IMG/VR virus record: IMGVR_UViG_3300006167_000001
DNA: 33,456 nucleotides
DNA from: a virus
Taxonomy: Duplodnaviria > Heunggongvirae > Uroviricota > Caudoviricetes
Direction: 5' to 3' (one strand)
Part shown: positions 1,514-27,165 of the stretch, piece by piece
Numbering within the stretch: position 1 is the stretch's first letter
How the letters are laid out: each line of letters starts with the position of its first letter
Position numbers and translations under genes: made by a program
The notes under the pieces: model-generated
What the model saw: the letters and a program-made list of their open reading frames with translations, nothing else
The model's database searches: none
What the model was told of the DNA's origin: nothing

Positions 1514-1861
1514 ATGGAGATCACTGAAAGCATCCTGACCTCTATCAAGAAGCTGTTGGGCATTGATGCGGAGTATAAACACTTTGATCCCGATCTCATC
1601 ATGCACATCAATAGTGTGTTTTCGATTCTGACACAGATGGGTGTCGGCCCGCCTGATGGTTTCTCCATTACCGGCGACAGCGAGAAGTGGGAAGCTTTCA
1701 TTGCGAAAGAACCCAACAAATTTTCGCTTGTAAAATCCTATATGCATCTCAAGGTTAAGCTGCTGTTCGATCCGCCGCTCGGCTCCGCTGTTATCGAGTC
1801 TATCAATAGACAGATCAGAGAGTTTGAGTGGCGTCTTGTCGTTGCGGCCGATCCCGTTTGA
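1514..1861 (+). CDS. Conserved phage structural protein, possible head-tail connector
   Basis: RBS GGGAGGG. 115-aa helical protein starting SILTSIKKLLGI, resembling connector-type N-termini. Function inferred. Confidence 0.4.
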   Translation: MEITESILTSIKKLLGIDAEYKHFDPDLIMHINSVFSILTQMGVGPPDGFSITGDSEKWEAFIAKEPNKFSLVKSYMHLKVKLLFDPPLGSAVIESINRQIREFEWRLVVAADPV

Positions 1862-1890: not shown

Positions 1891-2397
1891 ATGGAATTAT
1901 TCCACCACGGTATCAAAGGTCAGAAGTGGGGCGTCCGCCGTTACCAGAATGCCGATGGGTCGCTGACGGCCGAAGGGCAGAAGCGGTATGAGCGGGATGT
2001 TCGTGAGAACAACGCCAAGAAAAAGGACAATCGGGCTATCATTGACGGCCCCGACCCGAAGCGTTGGGCTGCCGAAGATTTGGATCGTTCCAAGCAGGTT
2101 GTGGACGCCCACGCCGATCTTGTGAAAGAGCTGAAAAAGCTTGAACAGACAACGGCTCCGAAGTCCACACCCACGAGGCTCGATTTGTCCAAGATGAGCG
2201 ACAAGGAACTCCGGGATCAGATTAACCGGGAGCTTCTGGAGCAGCAGTACAATAAGCTGTTCGCCGATACTTCGGCAGCACAGGTCTCCAAAGGGCGGGT
2301 TCTTTTACAGGACACTCTCGATGTGGCCGGAAGTCTTCTGGCTATTACCGGTTCGGCGCTGAGTATTGCCCTGGCCATCAAGAAACTGAAGGATTAG
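1891..2397 (+). CDS. HHG-leader protein 1 (MELFHHGIKGQKWGVRRYQNADG...), with hydrophobic C-terminus
   Basis: Start at ATG 1891 (RBS GAAAGGAGG 1873-1881). Leader shared with 2410 and 5070. Ends AGSLLAITGSALSIALAIKKLKD. Confidence 0.75.
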   Translation: MELFHHGIKGQKWGVRRYQNADGSLTAEGQKRYERDVRENNAKKKDNRAIIDGPDPKRWAAEDLDRSKQVVDAHADLVKELKKLEQTTAPKSTPTRLDLSKMSDKELRDQINRELLEQQYNKLFADTSAAQVSKGRVLLQDTLDVAGSLLAITGSALSIALAIKKLKD

Positions 2398-2409
2398 GAG
2401 GGAGCTGAT

Positions 2410-3294
2410 ATGGAACTGTCCCATCACGGTATCCTGAATCAAAAATGGGGCGTGCGACATGGGCCCCCTTATCCTTTGGGCGGCGGGGATTACAGTGCTG
2501 CCCAGAGAAAAGCCATTCGGAACAAGCGGAAATCTGGAAACAGCATTTACAACAAACGGCATTTCGATGAGGTGTTGAAAGCTGATAAAACCACTTTGAG
2601 CACCTTATCGTATGACCGGGATCGAACCAAGAACACCGATATGTTCTATGCAACCCACAACGTCCTCGACAAGCATCAGTATAACGCTTTGTTCAACCGC
2701 CCAATTCCTCAGACCATTTACGATGAGAATGGGAATGCGATCGGCACTGGAAACTTCATGAAGTACCGGATCGACAACTCTCTTAAGAAGGACATCAAAG
2801 TTGCCAGTGAGGATTCCGGCGCTGAAGTGTTTAGGGAGCTGTTCAAGAAAGACCGAGACTTTTACAACTTCGTCATGGACGAGGAACGGATGCAGAGCTA
2901 CTTTGTAAGCGACAAATACAAGTTCAAAGGTTACAGAGAAGTTCGTCAGGTCCTTGAAAAGATGAAGAGCGGCGACTACACTCCTACGGCGGATGAACTT
3001 CAGGTGGTATATCGGATGTTCAACTATGTCATCCCTTACGACGGTGCTGGTGATGCCCGTAAAGGAAAAGACGTGACGACCCAGCGGACTAAGTTCTTCA
3101 AGGCGCTCAAGGAAGCTGGATATGGGGCAGTCCTCGATACGAATGATGCCATTTATGGCGGGTTCAAGGCCAAGTCCCCGGTCATCGTGTTTGACATGGA
3201 GCAGGTCGTACCGAAAGACGTCTACCGTACGAAGATGATCGATCAGAAATTCTCGGATCTCGTGCTTGTCGGCAGAAAGATACTCGGGCAGTAA
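2410..3294 (+). CDS. HHG-leader protein 2 (MELSHHGILNQKWGVR...), with a globular, possibly ADP-ribosyltransferase-like C-terminal domain
   Basis: RBS AGGAGGGAG. Shares the leader. C-terminal ALKEAGYGAVLDTND...SPVIVFD resembles the GYD...vvF ending of ART-like folds (weak). Confidence 0.7.
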   Translation: MELSHHGILNQKWGVRHGPPYPLGGGDYSAAQRKAIRNKRKSGNSIYNKRHFDEVLKADKTTLSTLSYDRDRTKNTDMFYATHNVLDKHQYNALFNRPIPQTIYDENGNAIGTGNFMKYRIDNSLKKDIKVASEDSGAEVFRELFKKDRDFYNFVMDEERMQSYFVSDKYKFKGYREVRQVLEKMKSGDYTPTADELQVVYRMFNYVIPYDGAGDARKGKDVTTQRTKFFKALKEAGYGAVLDTNDAIYGGFKAKSPVIVFDMEQVVPKDVYRTKMIDQKFSDLVLVGRKILGQ

Positions 3295-3305
3295 GGGGTG
3301 AGCGG

Positions 3306-5054
3306 ATGCTGTCAAACACTGCTGTCCCCAAATATTACGGTGCTTTTCGAGACGCAGTAATCAGGGGCGAAATACCCGTGTGCAGAGAGATCGACTTGGA
3401 AATGCATCGGATTGACGATTTGATTGACGATCCGATGTATTACTACGATGATAGAGCGGTTGATGGTTGGGTTGAATTCTGTGAAAATGAATTGACACTG
3501 ACTGACGGCTCCGACTTGCACATGTTGGATAGTTTCAAGCTCTGGGGCGAGCAGGTGTTTGGTTGGTATTACTTCGAGACACGCTCCATTTACGTTCCGA
3601 ACAGGGACGGGCATGGCGGACGATATGTCAACAAGAAAATCAAGAAACGACTGGTGAATAAGCAATATCTGATCGTAGGAAGAGGTGCTGCGAAATCGCT
3701 GTACGATTCCTGCATTCAGGCGTATTCGCTGGTTGTCGATGGGTCTACTACCCATCAGATCACCACAGCCCCGACGATGAAACAGGCGGAGGAGATCATT
3801 AACCCGATCAAGACCGCTATTACACGAGCCCGAGGACCGGTCATCCAGTTCATGACGGAAGGTTCGATTCAGAACACGACCGGAAACCTTATGAATCGCG
3901 TCAAGCTGGCATCCACGAAGAAAGGGATCGAAAACTTCATTTCAGGTTCTCTGATTGAGGTTCGCCCCATGTCTGTGGACAAGCTACAGGGATTGCGCTG
4001 TAAGGTGGCCACCGTAGATGAGTGGCTTTCCTCTGCCGATGCCCGAGAAGACGTCATTGGCGCTATCGAACAGGGTGCATCCAAGTTGGATGATTATCTG
4101 ATCGTTGCCACAAGCTCCGAAGGCACTGTCCGAAACGGAGCGGGAGACACTATCAAAATGGAGTTGATGAACATCCTTCAGGGTGTTGGCAGGCCGATGC
4201 CTCAGGTATCTATCTGGTGGTATAAGCTGGACTCCGTGGATGAGGTTGCCTACCCGGACATGTGGGCGAAGGCTAATCCCAATATTGGAAAGACCGTATT
4301 CTACGATACCTATCAGAAAGATGTAGACAGAGCTGAGACTGCTCCATCTACAAGAAACGATATGCTGGCGAAAAGGTTCGGCCTCCCGATGGAAGGCTAC
4401 ACCTACTATTTCACCTATGAGGAAACGCTTCCCCATCGCCGGCAGAAGTTTTGGCAGATGCCGTGTTCCCTTGGCTGTGACCTTTCACAGGGAGATGACT
4501 TCTGTTCTTTCACATTTTTATTCCCGCTGCGAGGTGGATCGTTTGGCGTAAAAACACGAAACTACATCACCTCGCTGACCCTTAACAAGCTCCCTGCTGC
4601 TATGCGCCTCAAGTATGAGGATTTCATGGCGGAAGGGAGTCTTATTGTTATGGAGGGAACTGTCCTTGATTTGATGCAGGTCTACGAGGATCTGGATGAC
4701 CACATCATTAACCTCGGCTACGATGTTCGTTGCCTCGGCTATGACCCTTACAACGCAAAGGAATTTGTGGAGCGATGGGCATCCGAGAACGGGCCGTATG
4801 GAATAGAGAAGGTCATCCAGGGAGCGAAGACGGAGTCGGTTCCTCTTGGAGAACTGAAGAAACTTTCGGAAGAGCGTATGCTTATCTTCGATGAAGATCT
4901 GATGACTTTCGCCATGGGAAACTGCATAACAATTCAGGACAATAACGGAAACAGGAAGCTGATGAAGAAGCGGTCTGAGCAGAAGATTGACGCTGTTGCG
5001 GCCATGATGGATGCCTATATCGCTTATCGGCATAATCCTGAAGCATTTGAATAG
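3306..5054 (+). CDS. terL: Terminase large subunit
   Basis: Walker A VGRGAAKS, Walker B VATVDEW, RNase-H-like nuclease motifs LGCDLSQGDD and KIDAVAAMMDA; 582 aa. Confidence 0.95.
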   Translation: MLSNTAVPKYYGAFRDAVIRGEIPVCREIDLEMHRIDDLIDDPMYYYDDRAVDGWVEFCENELTLTDGSDLHMLDSFKLWGEQVFGWYYFETRSIYVPNRDGHGGRYVNKKIKKRLVNKQYLIVGRGAAKSLYDSCIQAYSLVVDGSTTHQITTAPTMKQAEEIINPIKTAITRARGPVIQFMTEGSIQNTTGNLMNRVKLASTKKGIENFISGSLIEVRPMSVDKLQGLRCKVATVDEWLSSADAREDVIGAIEQGASKLDDYLIVATSSEGTVRNGAGDTIKMELMNILQGVGRPMPQVSIWWYKLDSVDEVAYPDMWAKANPNIGKTVFYDTYQKDVDRAETAPSTRNDMLAKRFGLPMEGYTYYFTYEETLPHRRQKFWQMPCSLGCDLSQGDDFCSFTFLFPLRGGSFGVKTRNYITSLTLNKLPAAMRLKYEDFMAEGSLIVMEGTVLDLMQVYEDLDDHIINLGYDVRCLGYDPYNAKEFVERWASENGPYGIEKVIQGAKTESVPLGELKKLSEERMLIFDEDLMTFAMGNCITIQDNNGNRKLMKKRSEQKIDAVAAMMDAYIAYRHNPEAFE

Positions 5055-5069
5055 GAAGGAGGAACCGTT

Positions 5070-5642
5070 TTGGATCATCGTAATAAGCCCCCGCCTCAGT
5101 CGTATTTGGCTCATCACGGCATCAAAGGCCAAAGATGGGGTGTCCGCCGTTACCAGAACGCGGATGGAACCTGGACCAAGGCTGGAAAGGAACGTTATGG
5201 CGATTCCGATGATGGAGGCGAGGAACGAAAAGCCTTCAGCAGTACCAAGAAGAAAGTGGCCATCGGTGTTGCGACTGGCGCAGCTGTTATCGCTGGCACA
5301 GTTCTGACGGCCTACCTTGTCAAGAAGCATGGAGCGAAGAGCGTCGCCGATATTGTGGATAAAGCTCCTGCCGGAAAGGAAATTCTTCAGGATTTGCTCA
5401 AATCTACTCCCGTGGCGACAACTCCTGTAAGTCAAATCCCGACACCGAAAGTAGAGCCCAAACAAGTTCTGGAAAAGGTTGTTAAGAGCGCTTCCACCAC
5501 AGCTGCTCCGGTCAGCCAAATTTCAGCACCACGAGTTAGCGTAAGCAAACCATCTTCGGAGATTCCGCCTGCCTACAGCTTTGAATCGCTGATACGGCAG
5601 AACGATGACCTCCTTAAAAAGATGCTTGCTGAGTTGGCTTGA
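5070..5642 (+). CDS. HHG-leader protein 3 (YLAHHGIKGQRWGVRRYQNADG...), with a TM-like segment and Pro/Thr/Ser-rich linker
   Basis: TTG start with RBS GGAAGGAGG (5054-5062). Hydrophobic VAIGVATGAAVIAGTVLTAYLV. Lies between terL and portal. Confidence 0.75.
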   Translation: MDHRNKPPPQSYLAHHGIKGQRWGVRRYQNADGTWTKAGKERYGDSDDGGEERKAFSSTKKKVAIGVATGAAVIAGTVLTAYLVKKHGAKSVADIVDKAPAGKEILQDLLKSTPVATTPVSQIPTPKVEPKQVLEKVVKSASTTAAPVSQISAPRVSVSKPSSEIPPAYSFESLIRQNDDLLKKMLAELA

Positions 5643-5661: not shown

Positions 5662-6906
5662 ATGGAAATGTCATTGGGAGCTCGACTGAAACATGCTTGG
5701 AATGTGTTTACGGCGAAGGAGACTGTTGGTGGCCGTTGGGATATTGGCCCCAGCAACTATTATCGTCCGGACCGTCCCATATTCAGTCGGGGAAATGAGC
5801 GCTCCATCATCACATCCGTTTATAACCGAATCGCATTGGACGTAGCGGCAATCACCATCCAGCATGTTCGTTTGGATGATGAAGGCCGCTTTACTTCTGT
5901 TATGGACAGCAGCTTGAACGACTGCCTTTCTCTGGAGGCCAACATTGACCAGACAGGACGGGCTTTTATTCAGGACGTTGTCCAATCCATGCTGGATGAA
6001 GGCTGTGTTGCCATCGTTCCTGTCGACACAGACCTCGATCCGAAAAGCGGGTCATACAAGATCGAAACAATGCGAACCGGAAAAATCCTGGAGTGGTATC
6101 CGCAGCACGTTAAAGTTCGTGTCTACAACGAGCGCACGGGCAGGAAGGAAGATGTTTTGGTGCCGAAACGCACCGTGGCCAGTGTGGAGAATCCCTTCTA
6201 TGCCGTCATGAACGAACCCAACTCCACAATGCAGAGGTTGATTCGGAAGCTCAACATTCTGGACGCTATCGATGAACAGAGCGGTTCTGGAAAACTCAAC
6301 CTGATTATTCAGCTCCCTTACGTCATCAAGACGGAAGCGAGGCGTCAACAGGCGGAAAAGCGCCGTAAAGATATCGAGGAACAGCTATCCGGTTCCAAGT
6401 ATGGTGTGGCATACACTGATGGAACGGAGCATGTGGTTCAGCTGAACCGACCCGTCGACAACAACCTCATGAGCCAGATCGAATTCCTGACGAGTATGCT
6501 TTACAGCCAGTTGGGATTGACCCAGAGCATCATGGATGGTACCGCCGACGACAAGACGATGCTGAACTATCTGACCCGAACCGTCGAGCCGATTCTTTCC
6601 GCCATCGTTGACGAGATGAAGAGGAAGTTCCTCACCAAGACCGCTCGGTCACAGAAGCAGTCGATCCTGTTCTTCAGAGATCCGTTTAAGCTGGTTCCCG
6701 TGGGCGAATTTGCTGAAATTGCCGACAAGATGACCCGTAATGAGGTCATGACCTCGAATGAGATCCGGCAGAAGATTGGCATGACGCCGTCGAAGGACCC
6801 GAATGCGGACAAGCTCCGGAACAGCAACCTGAGTGCTCCCAAAGAGGAATCGACCGAACAAAACAAACCAAAGGAGGACGAAGTTCAAAATGGATCTGAA
6901 GTATGA
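5662..6906 (+). CDS. Portal protein
   Basis: 414 aa, downstream of terL and upstream of protease-capsid. HK97-like portal features (VYNRIALDVAAITIQHV; LYSQLGLTQSIMDG; TVEPILSAIVDEMKRKFL). Confidence 0.9.
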   Translation: MEMSLGARLKHAWNVFTAKETVGGRWDIGPSNYYRPDRPIFSRGNERSIITSVYNRIALDVAAITIQHVRLDDEGRFTSVMDSSLNDCLSLEANIDQTGRAFIQDVVQSMLDEGCVAIVPVDTDLDPKSGSYKIETMRTGKILEWYPQHVKVRVYNERTGRKEDVLVPKRTVASVENPFYAVMNEPNSTMQRLIRKLNILDAIDEQSGSGKLNLIIQLPYVIKTEARRQQAEKRRKDIEEQLSGSKYGVAYTDGTEHVVQLNRPVDNNLMSQIEFLTSMLYSQLGLTQSIMDGTADDKTMLNYLTRTVEPILSAIVDEMKRKFLTKTARSQKQSILFFRDPFKLVPVGEFAEIADKMTRNEVMTSNEIRQKIGMTPSKDPNADKLRNSNLSAPKEESTEQNKPKEDEVQNGSEV

Positions 6907-8767
6907 CTTTAGTGGCTGGGCAACCCGAAACGATCTTGTCTGCGCCGACGGACGGACTATCCGGAAAGGCGCTTTCAAGCATTGCGATGGGATGTCGGTT
7001 CCCATTGTCTGGAACCATCAGCACGACGATGTTGACAACATCCTGGGCCACGCCATTCTCGAAGAGCGCAAGGATGGCATGTACGCCTATTGCTTCCTGA
7101 ATGAGACGGAAAGCGGTAAGGCGGCCAAGCAGATCGTGCAGCACGGCGATGTTCATATGCTGTCTATTTACGCCAATGGCCTGAAGCAGGTCCCCAACGG
7201 CAACGGCAAAGATGTCGTTCACGGGGACATTCGCGAAGTCAGTCTCGTTGTCGGCGGTGCGAATCCCGGCGCGTTTATCGACTTCGTTGATCTGGCCCAC
7301 GGCGATGGCGCTGAACAGGAGGTCATCATTGGAACCGGCGAGGCTCCCAGCCTTTACCATTCCAGTGAGAAGCCTCCTCTTATTACGCCCAAATCTGGTG
7401 AGAAGCCGAAAGAGGACCCGAAACCCACTGAGGAGCCCAAGGAAGACCCGAAGCCCGAGGATAAGCCCAAAGAGGGCGAGACCGTTCAGGACGTTGTGGA
7501 CAGCATGACCGAGAAGCAGCGGACTGTTATGTACGCTCTTATCGCTGCCACCGCGGAAGAGCTGGGCAAGGGTTCCAACAGCGGCTCTGACAAATCTGAC
7601 AAAACCAAAGGAGGAGACAACACCATGAAGCATAACGTTTTCGACCGGGAAGAGACCAAGGACACCGTTCTGTGTCATGCCGCCCAGGGTGAGATCCTGG
7701 CCCTGGCCAAGCAGAACAGCGTCGGCACTTTCCAGAATGCTCTCGGAATCTATCTGGAGCAGAATGAGGAGCTGGCCCACGGCATCGACAACATCGAGGC
7801 GCTGTTCCCCGAGTTCAAGGATGTGCGTCCTGGCGCTCCCGAACTGGTCACCCGCGACCAGGGCTGGGTCACCGTCGTCATGAACAAGGTTCACAAGCAG
7901 CCCTTCAGCCGTATCCGCACCCGCCAGATGGACGCCCGTAATGACAGCATCCGTTCTCATGGCTATAAGAAGGGCGACAAGAAGACCGCCTCCGGCAACA
8001 TGAGCCTGGTGGCCCGGACTACCGATCCTCAGACGATCTATCGTACTGAGCCTCTTAACCGGGACGACATTCTCGACATTACCGACTTCGACGTGGTCGA
8101 GTACCAGTACGGCGAGATGAAGCTGAACCTCAAGGAGGAGGTTGCTGTCTCCATCATGGTCGGCGACGGCCGCGACCCTGGCGATCAGCACAAGATCTCT
8201 GAGGATCACATTCGCTCCATCTGGAACGACAAGGAAATCTACACCATCCATAAGGATGTGGACCTTGAGGCAGCCAAGAAGGAGCTTCAGGGCACCAATA
8301 CCGGCGCGAACTTCGGAGACAAATACGTCTACTCTGAGGCTGTCATTGAGGCGGCGCTGTACGCTCGTGAGGGATACAAGGGCACCGGCATCCCCGATTT
8401 CTACTGCACCCCTCACAACCTGAACACCATGCTGCTGGCCCGTGACCGCAACGGCCGTAAGCTCTACAACGGCAAGGCCGATATCATCACGGCTCTGAAC
8501 GTGAAGGACATCTACACTGCGGAGCAGTTTGATGGTCTGATTCGTACTGATGACTCCGGTAAGGGTCACGAGCTGATCGGCATCTTTGTCAACCTGGAGG
8601 ACTACACGGTAGGCTGCGCCAAGGGCGGAGAGATCACCCGGTTTGAGCAGTTCGATATCGACTTCAACCAGAACAAGCAGATGATCGAGACCCGGCTCTC
8701 CGGCGCTCTGACCAGGATTGCCAGCGCCATTGTCCTGGAGATGCCTGTTTCCGAAGAGGCCGCCTGA
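6890..8767 (+). CDS. Prohead protease-major capsid protein fusion (625 aa)
   Basis: Start at ATG 6890 (RBS AAGGAGG). N-terminal HK97-type protease (FSGWA...GAF...VPIVWNHQH...LSIYA...EVSLV...ANPGA), then a Lys/Glu/Pro linker, then an HK97-fold capsid C-terminus (FEQFDIDFNQNKQMIETRLSGAL). Confidence 0.88.
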   Translation: MDLKYDFSGWATRNDLVCADGRTIRKGAFKHCDGMSVPIVWNHQHDDVDNILGHAILEERKDGMYAYCFLNETESGKAAKQIVQHGDVHMLSIYANGLKQVPNGNGKDVVHGDIREVSLVVGGANPGAFIDFVDLAHGDGAEQEVIIGTGEAPSLYHSSEKPPLITPKSGEKPKEDPKPTEEPKEDPKPEDKPKEGETVQDVVDSMTEKQRTVMYALIAATAEELGKGSNSGSDKSDKTKGGDNTMKHNVFDREETKDTVLCHAAQGEILALAKQNSVGTFQNALGIYLEQNEELAHGIDNIEALFPEFKDVRPGAPELVTRDQGWVTVVMNKVHKQPFSRIRTRQMDARNDSIRSHGYKKGDKKTASGNMSLVARTTDPQTIYRTEPLNRDDILDITDFDVVEYQYGEMKLNLKEEVAVSIMVGDGRDPGDQHKISEDHIRSIWNDKEIYTIHKDVDLEAAKKELQGTNTGANFGDKYVYSEAVIEAALYAREGYKGTGIPDFYCTPHNLNTMLLARDRNGRKLYNGKADIITALNVKDIYTAEQFDGLIRTDDSGKGHELIGIFVNLEDYTVGCAKGGEITRFEQFDIDFNQNKQMIETRLSGALTRIASAIVLEMPVSEEAA

Positions 8768-9406: not shown

Positions 9407-9421
9407 ATAAGGAGGATGTCT

Positions 9422-9739
9422 ATGAAAGCAATGCTGTCCCAGCCCATGGCCGGGAAGACTGATGAGGAAATCATTGCAACCAGAGAAAAAGCTATCGCCG
9501 CCCTCACTGAGAAAGGGTATGAGGTCGTCAATACTCTTTTCACGGATGAGTGGTACAGCAGAGAGAGCATGGAGGCCCGCGGGGTGGTTCAGATTCCGCT
9601 GTGTTTCCTGGCCAAGTCCCTTGAAAACATGGCAAACTGCCATGCCGCTTACTTCTGTAAGGGGTGGGAGCAGGCGAGAGGCTGTCGTATCGAGCACGCT
9701 GCGGCCGAAGCATATGGGCTGGACATTATTTACGAATAA
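9422..9739 (+). CDS. DUF4406-like / nucleoside 2-deoxyribosyltransferase-fold protein
   Basis: ATG 9422 fits RBS AAGGAGG (9409-9415). Pattern LSQPMAG...GYEVVN...CHAAYFCKGWEQARGCRIEHAAAEAYGLDIIYE is characteristic of this Rossmann-like family. Confidence 0.7.
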   Translation: MKAMLSQPMAGKTDEEIIATREKAIAALTEKGYEVVNTLFTDEWYSRESMEARGVVQIPLCFLAKSLENMANCHAAYFCKGWEQARGCRIEHAAAEAYGLDIIYE

Positions 9740-11504: not shown

Positions 11505-11714
11505 ATGGATAATTCGATTATCAAGAGGCTGGGAAACCTGCTCAGTGTTAAGAGCCTGGTTACTCTGACGCTTACCGTGGTATTCGCGGTCATGGCCCTG
11601 CGGGGGACTATCTCCCAGGACTTTATGACCGTTTATGCCGTGGTCATTGCGTTCTATTTTGGTACCCAGTCGCAGAAGGTGCAGAACGCATTGGAGGGCA
11701 GCGGCAATGGATAG
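11505..11714 (+). CDS. Putative holin (69 aa, two TM segments)
   Basis: RBS AAGGTGAG. Hydrophobic segments SLVTLTLTVVFAVMAL and FMTVYAVVIAFYFG. Overlaps the endolysin start. Confidence 0.7.
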   Translation: MDNSIIKRLGNLLSVKSLVTLTLTVVFAVMALRGTISQDFMTVYAVVIAFYFGTQSQKVQNALEGSGNG

Positions 11715-12393
11715 AGACGTACTGACCATCGCACGGGGAGAGCTGGGCAACACCGAGAACCCCGCAGGGAGCAACCGGACGAAATATGGGGCATGGATGA
11801 AGCTGGACGGACAGCCATGGTGTATGTCCTTTGTCCAGTGGTGTTTTGCGCAGGCCGGGCATCCGCTGCCATTCCGGACTGGCTCCTGCTCTGCCCTGCT
11901 GAACTGGTACAACGCAAACCATCCGGAGTGCGTTGTCACCACCCCCCAGCCCGGTGACGTTATCATCTACAATTTCGGCCACACCGGAATCGTGGAGAGC
12001 GTGCCCGGTGGTAAGATTACCGCTGTTGAGGGGAATACATCCCCTGGTGACAGCGGCAGTCAGGATAACGGAGGCGGCGTGTTCCGGAGGACCAGAAGCA
12101 TGAGCCTCGTCAGGGCGTACATCAGACCGATCAAGAAGGAGGACGACATGGATCAGGAAAAGTTTAACCAGATGTTCAAGACCGCCATGGAGGCGTACCG
12201 GAAGGATCTGAGGGACAACGACAGCGGCCAGTGGAGCAGGGAGGCCAGGGAGTACGCGATTTCTTCCGGTCTGTTCGCCGGCAGCGGCACCACACCGGAC
12301 GGCCAGCCCAACTACATGTGGGAGGATCTGCTGAACAGGGAGCAGGTAGCCCAGCTATTCTACCGCTTCGCCCAGAGAAATGGTCTGGTGTGA
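11707..12393 (+). CDS. Endolysin: CHAP domain plus C-terminal SLH-like domain
   Basis: Start at ATG 11707 (RBS GGAGGG). CHAP Cys in QPWCMSFVQW, His in GHTGIVE, and VEGNT. C-terminal WSREAREYAISSGLFAG...LNREQVAQLFYRF. Confidence 0.85.
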   Translation: MDRDVLTIARGELGNTENPAGSNRTKYGAWMKLDGQPWCMSFVQWCFAQAGHPLPFRTGSCSALLNWYNANHPECVVTTPQPGDVIIYNFGHTGIVESVPGGKITAVEGNTSPGDSGSQDNGGGVFRRTRSMSLVRAYIRPIKKEDDMDQEKFNQMFKTAMEAYRKDLRDNDSGQWSREAREYAISSGLFAGSGTTPDGQPNYMWEDLLNREQVAQLFYRFAQRNGLV

Positions 12394-25162: not shown

Positions 25163-26584
25163 ATGAAAATCATAGATTATGAGAAGGTCAAGCGGGTTGG
25201 CGCCAACGATGTGCTGCTGCTTGATGGTGAAAACGGAACCAAGACCATCCTGGCGTCTGACTTGGCCGTGGCTTTGATTGACCTGCTGCGTTCGGAGGAT
25301 TTTATCTCCGGTCTGACCATGACGGATCTGACTGCGACCGAGGGCCTTTCGGCAGAGAACATGCTCCTGGTGGGTACGGAAGACGGGAATAAGGCTATCC
25401 CGGCGGATGCTCTGGCTAAGGGGCTGATTACGCTTCTGAGCTCGGAGGAGTTTATTTCCGGCCTTGCGATGGCTGATCTTTCCGCCATCAACACAATTCC
25501 CGCTACAGACCGGCTGCTGGTAGGTACCAACGCCGGCAATAAGGTTATCACTGCGGCCAATCTGGCCAAGAGTCTGGTTGCGGCCTTGAGCTCGGATGAC
25601 TTTATCTCCGGTCTGACCATGAGTGAGCTGACAGATGTCACGACACTGTCAGCGGACAACAACATTCTGGTAGGAACCGCAGACGGTAACCGAGCAATGA
25701 CTGCTTCCAATCTGGCCAAGGCTGTGGTCAGCCTGCTCAGTGCGGGGGACTTTATCGCGGGGGTAAAAATGGCCGATATTCCCCAGGTCAGCGTCATTTC
25801 CGCTGCGGACAGACTGCTTGTCGGCACGGCTGCCGGCAACAAAGCCATCAATGCCAGCGATGCATTCTTCTCTATGCTGGACACGTTCATTGCGCCTGAG
25901 CAGCGTCGAATGACCTTCCGAGGGAAAAACCTTGGCGGCGCGGTCACGACAGCACAGAAGGCGGCCATCCGGGACGGCTCCTTTAAGGGACTCTTCCTCG
26001 GGGACTACTGGGTTATCAACAACGTTACCTGGCGGATTGCCGATTTCGATTACTGGGTCAACTGCGGCGATACTGCCGCGCCGCCCCACCATCTGGTCAT
26101 TGTGCCGGACACGGCCCTTTACAACCATGTGATGAACGACACCCATACCACCGAGGGCGGCTATACCGGCTCCAAGATGCGCATTGAGGGGCTGAACGCG
26201 GCGAAGACCACCATTGTCGCCGCCTTTGGTGATATGGTGCTGACGCACAGGGAAAACCTGGTAAACTCTGTGGCGGATGGGAGACCGTCCGGATGCCCGT
26301 GGACGGACTCCAGCGTGGAGATCATGAGCGAGATCATGGTGTATGGCTGTCACCACTTCGCTCCCACTTCGGACGGAACGATTGTCCCCGGCAACTGGAC
26401 CATCAGCAACTCCCAGTTGGCGCTGATGGCGGTGTGTCCCCGCTTCATCAAGACGAGGCAGGATTACTGGCTTCGTGATGTTGTGTCGGCGGCTAACTTC
26501 GCCCTTGTCGGCTGGGGTGGTTCCTCGGACTGCCGTGGCGCGGCGAGCTCTGTTGGGGTTCGTCCGGCATTCCCTGTTGGTTAG
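25163..26584 (+). CDS. DGR target: putative receptor-binding protein with 50-aa repeats and a C-terminal CLec-fold-like variable domain
   Basis: RBS AAGGAG. C-terminal YWLRDVVSAANFALV...GVRPAF contains the VR that matches the TR except at adenines. Confidence 0.88.
   Translation: MKIIDYEKVKRVGANDVLLLDGENGTKTILASDLAVALIDLLRSEDFISGLTMTDLTATEGLSAENMLLVGTEDGNKAIPADALAKGLITLLSSEEFISGLAMADLSAINTIPATDRLLVGTNAGNKVITAANLAKSLVAALSSDDFISGLTMSELTDVTTLSADNNILVGTADGNRAMTASNLAKAVVSLLSAGDFIAGVKMADIPQVSVISAADRLLVGTAAGNKAINASDAFFSMLDTFIAPEQRRMTFRGKNLGGAVTTAQKAAIRDGSFKGLFLGDYWVINNVTWRIADFDYWVNCGDTAAPPHHLVIVPDTALYNHVMNDTHTTEGGYTGSKMRIEGLNAAKTTIVAAFGDMVLTHRENLVNSVADGRPSGCPWTDSSVEIMSEIMVYGCHHFAPTSDGTIVPGNWTISNSQLALMAVCPRFIKTRQDYWLRDVVSAANFALVGWGGSSDCRGAASSVGVRPAFPVG
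25301..25900 (+). repeat. Four tandem 50-aa (150-bp) repeats in the DGR target
   Basis: FI(S/A)G..M..L.......A....LVGT..GN(K/R) units start at 25301, 25451, 25601 and 25751. TTTATCTCCGGTCTGACCATG is identical at 25301 and 25601. The fourth unit diverges at its 3' end. Confidence 0.85.
26484..26567 (+). repeat. DGR variable repeat (VR)
   Basis: 84 bp collinear with TR 27665-27748; 15 mismatches, all opposite TR adenines. Confidence 0.97.
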
Positions 26585-26591
26585 TAAATCT

Positions 26592-26608
26592 CGGGGCCTT
26601 GTGCCCCG
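26592..26608 (+). other. GC-rich hairpin downstream of VR/IMH (DGR target-recognition element)
   Basis: CGGGGC-CTTGT-GCCCCG, just after the target stop codon. Analogous to the hairpin/cruciform downstream of IMH in Bordetella phage BPP-1. Confidence 0.7.
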
Positions 26609-26635
26609 CGGCGATTTTGAGAAGGAGCATTCAAA

Positions 26636-26944
26636 ATGGATGAAAAAACCTACGCCATTACCCTGGCCGACGGCACTGCGCTTACCGGCCTGCGGCTGAA
26701 CGGCAACAACTATATTTCCGATGCGGAGATCACTCCCGCTATGTTCGCCGGCAACTGCTCTCCTGTGGTTATCAGCGACGGCGAAAACGAAGAAACCCAC
26801 GACAACATGAAGCTGATCCAGATCACCCATGTGGATGAGGAATACTGGTTTGTCCTGCTGGACGTCCCGGAAAGCGAGCTCCGGCGGCTGAAGATGCAGT
26901 CCGATCTGGAGTACCTGGCCATGATGACCGGCGTGGAACTGTAA
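26636..26944 (+). CDS. Hypothetical protein (possible fibre assembly factor)
   Basis: RBS AAGGAG; 102 aa, acidic. Ends MQSDLEYLAMMTGVEL, an ending commonly seen just upstream of XkdX genes. Confidence 0.6.
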   Translation: MDEKTYAITLADGTALTGLRLNGNNYISDAEITPAMFAGNCSPVVISDGENEETHDNMKLIQITHVDEEYWFVLLDVPESELRRLKMQSDLEYLAMMTGVEL

Positions 26945-26980
26945 AATTTTTGAAAGTTCCGTACGCAGGTGACCAAAATG

Positions 26981-26991
26981 TGTGTTACAAT
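26981..26991 (+). promoter_or_regulatory. Extended -10 promoter candidate upstream of xkdX-avd-TR-RT
   Basis: TGTG-T-TACAAT in an 80-bp intergenic gap; no canonical -35. Confidence 0.45.
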
Positions 26992-27023
26992 ACCCGAAAC
27001 TTTAGAAAGGAACTGGTAAGACT

Positions 27024-27164
27024 ATGGAACACAGCAGCAACTATGAAAAGGTCCGGGGCTACTATAGCATGAAGCTGTGGACTGAGACCCGGGTGCGCAA
27101 TGCCGTCAAGATGGGCTGGATCACCCAGGCGGAGTTTGAGGAGATTACCGGAAAGGCGTATTGA
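27024..27164 (+). CDS. xkdX: XkdX-family small protein (46 aa; absent from the ORF track)
   Basis: Manual translation MEHSSNYEKVRGYYSMKLWTETRVRNAVKMGWITQAEFEEITGKAY; RBS GAAAGGA. Classic 'vk.yY...lW....v..aV..gwIT.eey.eITG..Y' pattern. Confidence 0.85.
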   Translation: MEHSSNYEKVRGYYSMKLWTETRVRNAVKMGWITQAEFEEITGKAY

Positions 27165-27165
27165 T

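Follow-up and report, generated by a model that had tools for sequence, protein, structure and literature searches.

Three head-module genes in the window (the whole 33,456-nucleotide stretch of phage DNA that we analysed, with all coordinates below referring to the plus strand) carry a short N-terminal leader which, judged by its sequence, belongs to Pfam DUF7211 (PF23847), a family of unknown function. We propose, with a probability of roughly 0.63, that DUF7211 is a head-loading and protease-processing tag resembling the T4 CTS, cut specifically after a histidine and leaving its conserved part on the cargo. The original prediction of a head-targeting tag of the T4 internal-protein kind is supported, indirectly, by the structural labels of tagged proteins in phage 1706, by the 27-31 body families (toxin and enzyme domains among them) into which the leader-bearing proteins fall, and by the presence of tagged genes in the head module of 63 of 64 loci. 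With so many body families, the leader is not confined to a single domain.

Gene 1 (1891..2397, 168 aa) is composed of the leader, a basic helical body and a C-terminal hydrophobic helix (2323-2379). Gene 2 (2410..3294, 294 aa) exhibits a short leader (2416-2457) followed by a predicted ADP-ribosyltransferase-fold domain (aa ~47-292). Gene 3 (5070..5642, 190 aa), which begins with TTG and is preceded by a strong RBS, combines a leader, a hydrophobic segment (5256-5312), a P/T/S linker and a conserved C-terminal helix. The hydrophobic segments first noted in genes 1 and 3 were recovered at aa 145-163 (KD 2.0) and aa 63-81 (KD 1.95), respectively; the hydropathy check found no such segment in gene 2. 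No small ORF was found directly after any of the three genes. Gene 1 occupies the slot between the head-tail connector (1514..1861), which delimits the first cargo slot on its upstream side, and the terminase large subunit TerL (3306..5054), which is 73-74% identical to those of Gordonia cluster DJ and Streptomyces cluster BI phages. It is homologous to the first module of phage 1706 orf7, and its family is near-core in the lineage (54/64 loci); in the Atlas, its body returned DUF7211 clusters alone. Gene 3 is followed by the portal gene (5662..6906), whose product has a partly conserved L-x-H close to the N-terminus (5686), and by a single fusion of an S78 prohead protease, a spacer and the major capsid protein (6890..8767), in which His43 and Ser92 are invariant. 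The close TerL, the HNH-connector-TerL-portal-protease/capsid gene order and a DxDGD polymerase place this phage, described as a gut phage, in the 1706/DJ/BI/CC/AU/EL supergroup. DUF7211 is typical of the 1706/cluster DJ-BI-CC siphovirus supergroup.

All three leaders were found as originally quoted, with one correction: the quoted leader of gene 3 starts at 5103, position 5070 being the gene start. The leaders of gene 1 (1897..1989, His codon 1903-1905) and gene 3 (5106..5198, His codon 5112-5114) each comprise an L-x-H site and the segment that would be retained. Pairwise alignment of genes 1 and 3 yields a common stretch of 31 aa with 74% identity, longer than first stated; beyond it nothing is alignable, as had been claimed. 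Gene 2 has merely 16 aa in common with the leader. A six-frame scan detected no further copy in the window. Against the 25-position Pfam model (cut-off 27 bits), gene 3 scores 31.1 bits and gene 1 scores 26.2 bits as a protein and 28.3 bits in a genome search. Gene 2 is matched (E-value ~1e-6, at the near-identical locus L008) by a wider leader HMM built in this analysis, not by the Pfam model. Leader-related PHROGs are 32444, 7021, 7502, 14126 and 35934; a full-text search found no paper on DUF7211 or its motif. Three of 301 genomes of one host family exhibit matches, two of them in prophages of the phage lineage. The third is a chance hit below the cut-off in a housekeeping-type gene.

The tag falls into three segments, namely a short acidic propeptide of variable sequence, the invariant L-x-H, and a basic/aromatic stretch that is conserved and precedes the unrelated bodies. 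In the leader alignment the histidine is conserved at 100% and the leucine at 93%, and the W and G positions remain unchanged in sequences from two phyla. Three alternative post-His tags were found on one body family, and the sole locus of 64 lacking DUF7211 has an alternative tag behind the same L-x-H. The DUF7211 model covers neither the RNA-polymerase-type tag nor the third post-His tag.

The L-x-H at the leader start is the same motif as that found in the spacer of the protease-capsid fusion. This spacer (7292..7780) contains five hydrophobic-x-His sites (7292, 7352, 7625, 7670 and 7772), the first of which closes the protease domain and the last of which opens the capsid domain. A residue L, I, M or V stands two positions ahead of 82 of 89 histidines in spacers, as against 6/84 in the capsid domain and 8/58 in TerL. 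The pattern is repeated in 23 more divergent GTDB prophages (115/128 in the spacer vs 17/138 in the capsid), so that in both sets 90-92% of spacer histidines but 7-12% of those in the mature capsid lie in the motif; these counts are not independent, since the sequences are related. The last spacer histidine is such a site in all 23 prophages, and the L-x-H-G at the capsid boundary is invariant among 20 aligned relatives. The protease, portal and connector domains exhibit 40-55% of such histidines, owing to a few conserved positions. Depletion was also sought in the cargo bodies, where the proportion (15%) equals that in TerL, and there is therefore no depletion signal. No solved structure was matched by the sequence of the fusion. 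AlphaFold modelled it poorly (mean pLDDT 55), and the model is used here solely for the remark that the spacer is of low confidence; a complex prediction of protease domain and leader (score 0.02) is uninformative in either direction.

The residue following the histidine is His or Tyr in the leaders and small (G/A/N/S/D) in the spacer sites, and because of this difference cleavage at the leader sites may be inefficient or absent. We consider it unlikely, on balance, that the leader L-x-H is an uncut substrate mimic which loads cargo by binding the protease or spacer, with only the spacer and polyprotein upstream sites being cut. The polyproteins of relatives bear on both sides of this question. 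Leaders occur 2-6 times in each of 120 long proteins, and the histidine is kept in 284 of 285 internal copies. Extra hydrophobic-x-His sites followed by small residues concentrate in the 45 aa ahead of internal leaders (61/123 vs 36/364), and would be superfluous for splitting if the leader site were cut efficiently. However, many internal leaders have no upstream site, natural leader variants allow D, S, A, R, K, F and W right after the histidine, and two flanking sites would equally fit clean excision of a propeptide.

The nature of the cargo bears on where the tagged proteins act. The bodies are basic (median pI 9.95), and many are of low complexity or contain a hydrophobic helix. Together with the near-core status of the gene 1 family, these properties would suit assembly proteins that are packaged to form a basic core, condense DNA or tether membranes and are not delivered to the host. 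This explanation appears less likely again, as the cargo also includes an RNA polymerase, ADP-ribosyltransferase (ART) folds, Ntox50 (E-value 2e-16 in a relative), papain-fold, 2H and GNAT domains. All but the last of these would be sensible only in the cytoplasm, and some of the genes have small immunity-like ORFs downstream. Speaking against the head-loading reading, a tagged Ntox50 module was also seen outside the head module, in fusion with an unrelated gene.

A fourth, diverged leader is found at the N-terminus of the phage's own 905-aa RNA polymerase, whose gene starts 3.2 kb upstream of the window. This polymerase is of the DxDGD single-chain type (PHROG 4291, E-value 2.5e-217), and its N-terminus is also tagged in phages 1706, Kenosha and IceWarrior. 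In Lactococcus phage 1706, only orf7 and orf75 (the polymerase) are tagged, and both were deposited as "structural protein". Outside the morphogenesis module, orf75 is one of three ORFs among 55 with this label; orf62 and orf71 bear it as well. Lists from virion mass spectrometry can contain contaminants, and the labels are depositor annotations; they reportedly derive from virion mass spectrometry, in the 2008 work of Garneau and colleagues. A full-text search for virion proteomics of the lineage gave nothing relevant. It would be possible to account for the shared site and the late-operon position by a prohead protease that, with no packaging, switches on or sets free late effectors in the cytoplasm of the producing cell, and toxin-immunity pairs could work in a lysogen. 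We regard this as improbable, for it leaves unexplained why both tagged 1706 genes have structural labels, why a long segment after the His is conserved, and why the RNA polymerase is tagged.

The original prediction also proposed that leader DNA serves as a recombination anchor, citing an exact 17-mer common to genes 1 and 3. The 17-mer was located at 1933..1949 and 5142-5158. It is not beyond chance (P of a run of at least 17 = 0.07), since protein identity accounts for it: 10 of 22 degenerate codons match in the two leaders, compared with 8.9 expected. With codon identity at chance level, the 17-mer was rejected as a conserved DNA anchor. Breakpoints of body swaps do fall within the leader. 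Gene 3 itself is a chimera, combining parts of the two genes that stand first and second after TerL in close relatives, and its inferred crossover lies within the leader. Conservation of the DNA does not exceed what the protein demands, and the sequence comparisons suggest an anchor role solely as a by-product. The idea of swappable cargo likewise stands in part, borne out by the unrelated bodies and by the swaps inside the leader but qualified by the near-core gene 1. That the leader is maintained as a recombination site at the end of a DNA cassette, the peptide being incidental, is highly improbable and largely refuted despite the swaps and a higher synonymous identity of leader copies within genomes (48%) than between them (35%), because the copies differ mostly synonymously, the W and G positions are invariant, and codon usage shared within a genome confounds the excess seen there.

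For gene 2, the predicted structure (pLDDT 91) points to an ART beta-sheet core. ART-fold matches occur at Z 6-7.6, and most of the top VIA rows are ART/RES/PARP folds, the best having a middling Z of 7.6 (rmsd 4.0, 127 aligned residues). Conserved residues are T65, D87, Y91, D243, N245 and D246. Foldseek returned nothing at E 0.001; its top row, a lead only, is a cyanophage pre-ejectosome protein (E 0.05).

Taking DUF7211 as a processed head-loading tag, we infer loading, cleavage and ejection of the tagged proteins as follows. They would be synthesised late and attach to the interior of the assembling prohead, probably to the spacer or the protease domain, both of which, through their fusion to the capsid protein, number in the hundreds. 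The S78 protease would cut after hydrophobic-x-His, freeing the capsid protein; the same cut would strip the propeptides of cargo and split the relatives' polyproteins into single cargoes, the conserved post-His segment remaining as the new N-terminus. The basic cargo would be delivered together with the DNA. The RNA polymerase would likely serve early transcription, and gene 2, from its modelled fold, would likely be a T4-Alt-like ADP-ribosyltransferase. Genes 1 and 3 are likely membrane-inserting ejection proteins, and the cargo of relatives likely includes toxins with immunity genes. The repeated leader would supply homology for the swap or deletion of bodies.

A broader picture can be offered tentatively, with less than even confidence. 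A siphovirus lineage across Firmicutes and Actinobacteria may use a His-specific prohead protease and a portable tag of 15-30 aa to load an open-ended range of proteins: a virion RNA polymerase, ART and anti-defence enzymes, and antibacterial toxins, some as protease-split polyproteins. This cargo would be ejected through a long non-contractile tail, the retained tag being the ejection signal. If true, DUF7211 would have a function, and a prohead protease cutting after histidine is predicted; we know of no such His-specific cleavage by the prohead proteases of other phages. A two-barrel RNA polymerase would be packaged in virions of common gut, soil and dairy siphoviruses, temperate ones included. 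Hundreds of unknown proteins would become candidate injected host-takeover or anti-defence factors, and the short tag would offer a CTS-like tool for Gram-positive hosts. Phages in culture that are suited to testing these readings are 1706 and those of Gordonia cluster DJ and Streptomyces cluster BI.

Three known systems invite comparison. In T4, the CTS is carried by IPI-III and Alt and is processed by gp21, which cuts after Glu (logo such as LIE), the targeting part being removed (PMC9026906, PMC7411985). Like DUF7211, the CTS is a short N-terminal peptide heading basic proteins that are otherwise unrelated. In both systems one type of site recurs in the scaffold, the capsid precursor and the cargo (here by sequence only, in a phage encoding an intact prohead protease), and the cargo includes an ADP-ribosyltransferase (here by predicted fold). 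However, the two have no sequence similarity. The predicted DUF7211 site has His as its last residue, with a variable propeptide ahead of it and, behind it, a conserved segment that would be retained. The present phage further differs in being a siphovirus with a protease-capsid fusion, polyproteins in its relatives and an RNA polymerase that bears the tag. The MuF class of polymorphic toxins (PMC5576092) is similar in its head-module position near portal and terminase, its occurrence in temperate Firmicutes phages and its Ntox50 and ART cargo, and small immunity-like genes downstream are a further parallel in relatives of the present phage. In contrast, no MuF domain (PF04233/PF06152) was found in the three window genes or in ~30 related cargo proteins; the tag is a peptide of 15-30 aa and not a folded domain; there are 1-8 tagged genes per phage, against one; and most cargo is not recognisably toxic. 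Finally, the tagged polymerase resembles the N4 vRNAP, the crAss-like two-barrel vRNAP and the PHROG 4291/1706 orf75 family in being a DxDGD single-chain polymerase. In the part of the source available to us, the orf75 family is presented as a signature putative RNA polymerase, and its description there includes neither packaging nor an N-terminal tag (bioRxiv 10.1101/842583).

The three leaders predicted in the head module were all found in the sequence, at the N-termini of genes 1 (1891-2397), 2 (2410-3294) and 3 (5070-5642), as were the hydrophobic segments claimed for the bodies and the 17-mer common to genes 1 and 3 (at 1933 and 5142). Position 5070, given for the third leader, is correct for the gene start (a TTG codon), but the leader itself lies 11 codons downstream. 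Genes 1 and 3 have 31 aa in common (74% identity) and no similarity beyond them; gene 2 shares 16 aa of leader with the others. The leader matches the Pfam family DUF7211 and several PHROGs without annotation. A full-text literature search for the family name or the motif returned no paper. The leader is a real feature, already known as an unannotated Pfam family.

DUF7211 consists of a variable propeptide, L-x-H and a conserved basic/aromatic segment. In the gene fusing the prohead protease (S78) to the major capsid protein (6890-8767), all five histidines of the spacer between these domains have L or M two residues earlier. The first such site coincides with the end of the protease domain, and the last with the start of the capsid domain. 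Among 14 dereplicated relatives, the pattern fits 82 of 89 spacer histidines versus 6/84 in the capsid and 8/58 in the terminase large subunit (TerL), and in 23 more divergent prophages 115/128 spacer histidines versus 17/138, related sequences inflating the counts. The final spacer histidine is such a site in every one of these 23 prophages, in which the catalytic His and Ser of the protease are invariant. In the protease, portal and connector, 40-55% of histidines fit, owing to a few conserved positions. The spacer is also the lowest-confidence part of the fusion's structure model. Since prohead proteases remove such spacers (PMC7411985), hydrophobic-x-His is most simply read as a putative cleavage site with a terminal His. 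At the portal N-terminus (5662-5700), L-x-H plus a small residue is partly conserved (7/15 divergent portals), possibly marking a further protease site.

A search for longer relatives yielded proteins that span 300-1870 aa and contain 2-6 leaders; the internal copies keep His in 284/285 and Leu in 277/285 cases. Extra sites are enriched within 45 residues upstream of internal leaders (61/123 histidines versus 36/364), and certain modules match bodies found standing alone elsewhere. Such a layout is what a polyprotein split by a protease should show; were the leader a mere N-terminal domain, proteins with several leaders and crowded sites would be hard to account for.

A genome search revealed a weak match to the leader on a 905-aa frame (G000:C1:37382-40099, minus strand, in genome coordinates reaching beyond the window), whose ends lie 3.2 and 0.45 kb before window position 1. 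This frame encodes the single-chain RNA polymerase of the lineage (DxDGD motif; PHROG 4291; HTH ends). Its N-terminus exhibits L-x-H-Y-G and a basic segment with terminal W-G, a type of start shared by the polymerases of phages 1706, Kenosha and IceWarrior and most complete GTDB homologues. Two gene 2 homologues carry this polymerase-type tag, and four further ones a third post-His tag. The latter, beginning F-N-P-N-H-D after L-x-H, takes the place of DUF7211 in prophage locus L145, between connector and portal, and on proteins P0252, P0255, P0261 and P0263; it is the tag on the genes in these slots in the sole locus without DUF7211; a Pfam scan of two third-tag carriers matched no family. With alternative tags behind a constant L-x-H, L-x-H is the fixed element, and the segment after it has interchangeable versions.

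In phage 1706 the tag occurs on orf7 and orf75 only, both deposited as "structural protein" (EU081845); orf75 is encoded away from the morphogenesis module, and just 3/55 ORFs outside that module carry this label. Gene 1 has a homologue in the first module of orf7 (E-value = 6e-10). The structural labels of 1706 are said to come from LC-MS/MS of virions by Garneau et al. in 2008.

We consider it probable (roughly 0.6) that the tag directs the loading of the prohead and that the protease cuts after L-x-H. The tag would bring the protein into the prohead, the prohead protease would cleave after L-x-H, and the conserved segment would be left as the new N-terminus of the cargo. That the cargo enters the host together with the DNA is less certain than loading plus cleavage. 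A main doubt comes from the residue following His, bulky in leaders versus small at spacer sites.

The idea of swappable cargo agrees with a catalogue of leader-fused domains, which holds many unrelated bodies (27 and 31 families in two locus sets; median pI 9.95). The gene 1 family is near-core (54/64 loci). The predicted structure of gene 2 is confident (pLDDT 91) and resembles ADP-ribosyltransferases in fold (best Z 7.6), with RES and ART-PolyVal as neighbours in the Atlas; DUF7211 is present on 105/121 full-length gene 2 homologues found by the body alone. Cargo domains in relatives include Ntox50, papain-fold, 2H phosphoesterase, GNAT and nuclease-like domains. Some of these genes in relatives have small immunity-like ORFs behind them; none was seen next to the three window genes. 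In the TerL-portal interval, at L055:11792-12400 and L078:2492-3070, tagged genes for nuclease-like toxins precede small acidic ORFs that look like immunity genes. At two other loci, L178 (1123-2055, minus strand) and L180, an unrelated 180-aa gene carries a leader and an Ntox50-like module at its C-terminal end, 15-37 kb away from the head module; this is a displaced cargo cassette. In Kenosha gp13 (L004:6352-8064) and ReqiPepy6 gp013 (L007:10681-12276), a 2H phosphoesterase, which may be packaged to counter host defence or repair RNA, is fused upstream of a gene-1-family module, with several L-x-H sites separating the two.

The tagged genes neighbour those for the connector, TerL, portal and protease-capsid fusion. 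Of the GTDB loci whose head block is complete, 63/64 have 1-5 tagged genes, and 141/143 tagged genes occupy the connector-TerL or the TerL-portal interval. The TerL of this phage shares 73-74% identity with those of Gordonia cluster DJ and Streptomyces cluster BI phages, which groups it with Lactococcus phage 1706 in one supergroup (see bioRxiv 10.1101/842583). The nearest prophages are in Oscillospiraceae and other gut Clostridia. A leader search matched 142 phage records, from the genera of the 1706/DJ/BI supergroup plus gut phages, with 5 copies in Kenosha, 4 in IceWarrior, 8 in ReqiPepy6 and two within orf7 of 1706. Elsewhere in the window are an SH3_3-domain gene ahead of the connector (1126-1503), a DUF4406 gene ahead of the major tail gene (9416-9739) and a CHAP-domain gene within the tail block (11635-12393). 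A diversity-generating retroelement (25163-29052) comprises a reverse transcriptase (27859-29052; RVT_1 E-value = 3e-15), a template repeat (27665-27748) and a variable repeat (26484-26567) with which the 473-aa target gene ends; the N-terminal half of this gene contains three to four 150-bp repeats (25213-25761). About 1-2.3 kb past the window end, a 411-aa ORF on the opposite (minus) strand resembles an integrase gene in position and size, which would fit a temperate phage.

The original prediction that leader DNA serves as a recombination anchor holds in part. Judging from the sequences, recombination does use the leader: in relatives 97% identical, the ribosome binding site and propeptide of gene 3 are those of the first post-TerL gene, its distal leader and body are those of the second, and at least six body families carry the first-slot propeptide. 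However, the DNA is not conserved beyond the need of the protein. At the codon level, the leaders of genes 1 and 3 agree no more than by chance, and a 17-base run is reached in 7% of simulations, so that selection acts on the peptide.

What is new here would be a variant of capsid targeting coupled to protease processing. The analogy drawn with MuF toxins (PMC5576092) extends to the head-module slot and the cargo types, but not to the MuF domain itself, which is absent from the tagged proteins. The tag system would work like the capsid targeting sequence (CTS) of T4, of which the cargo includes the ADP-ribosyltransferase Alt (PMC9026906). In contrast to T4, the putative site is another one and the conserved part would be kept on the cargo; the DUF7211 tag is not a member of the T4 CTS system.
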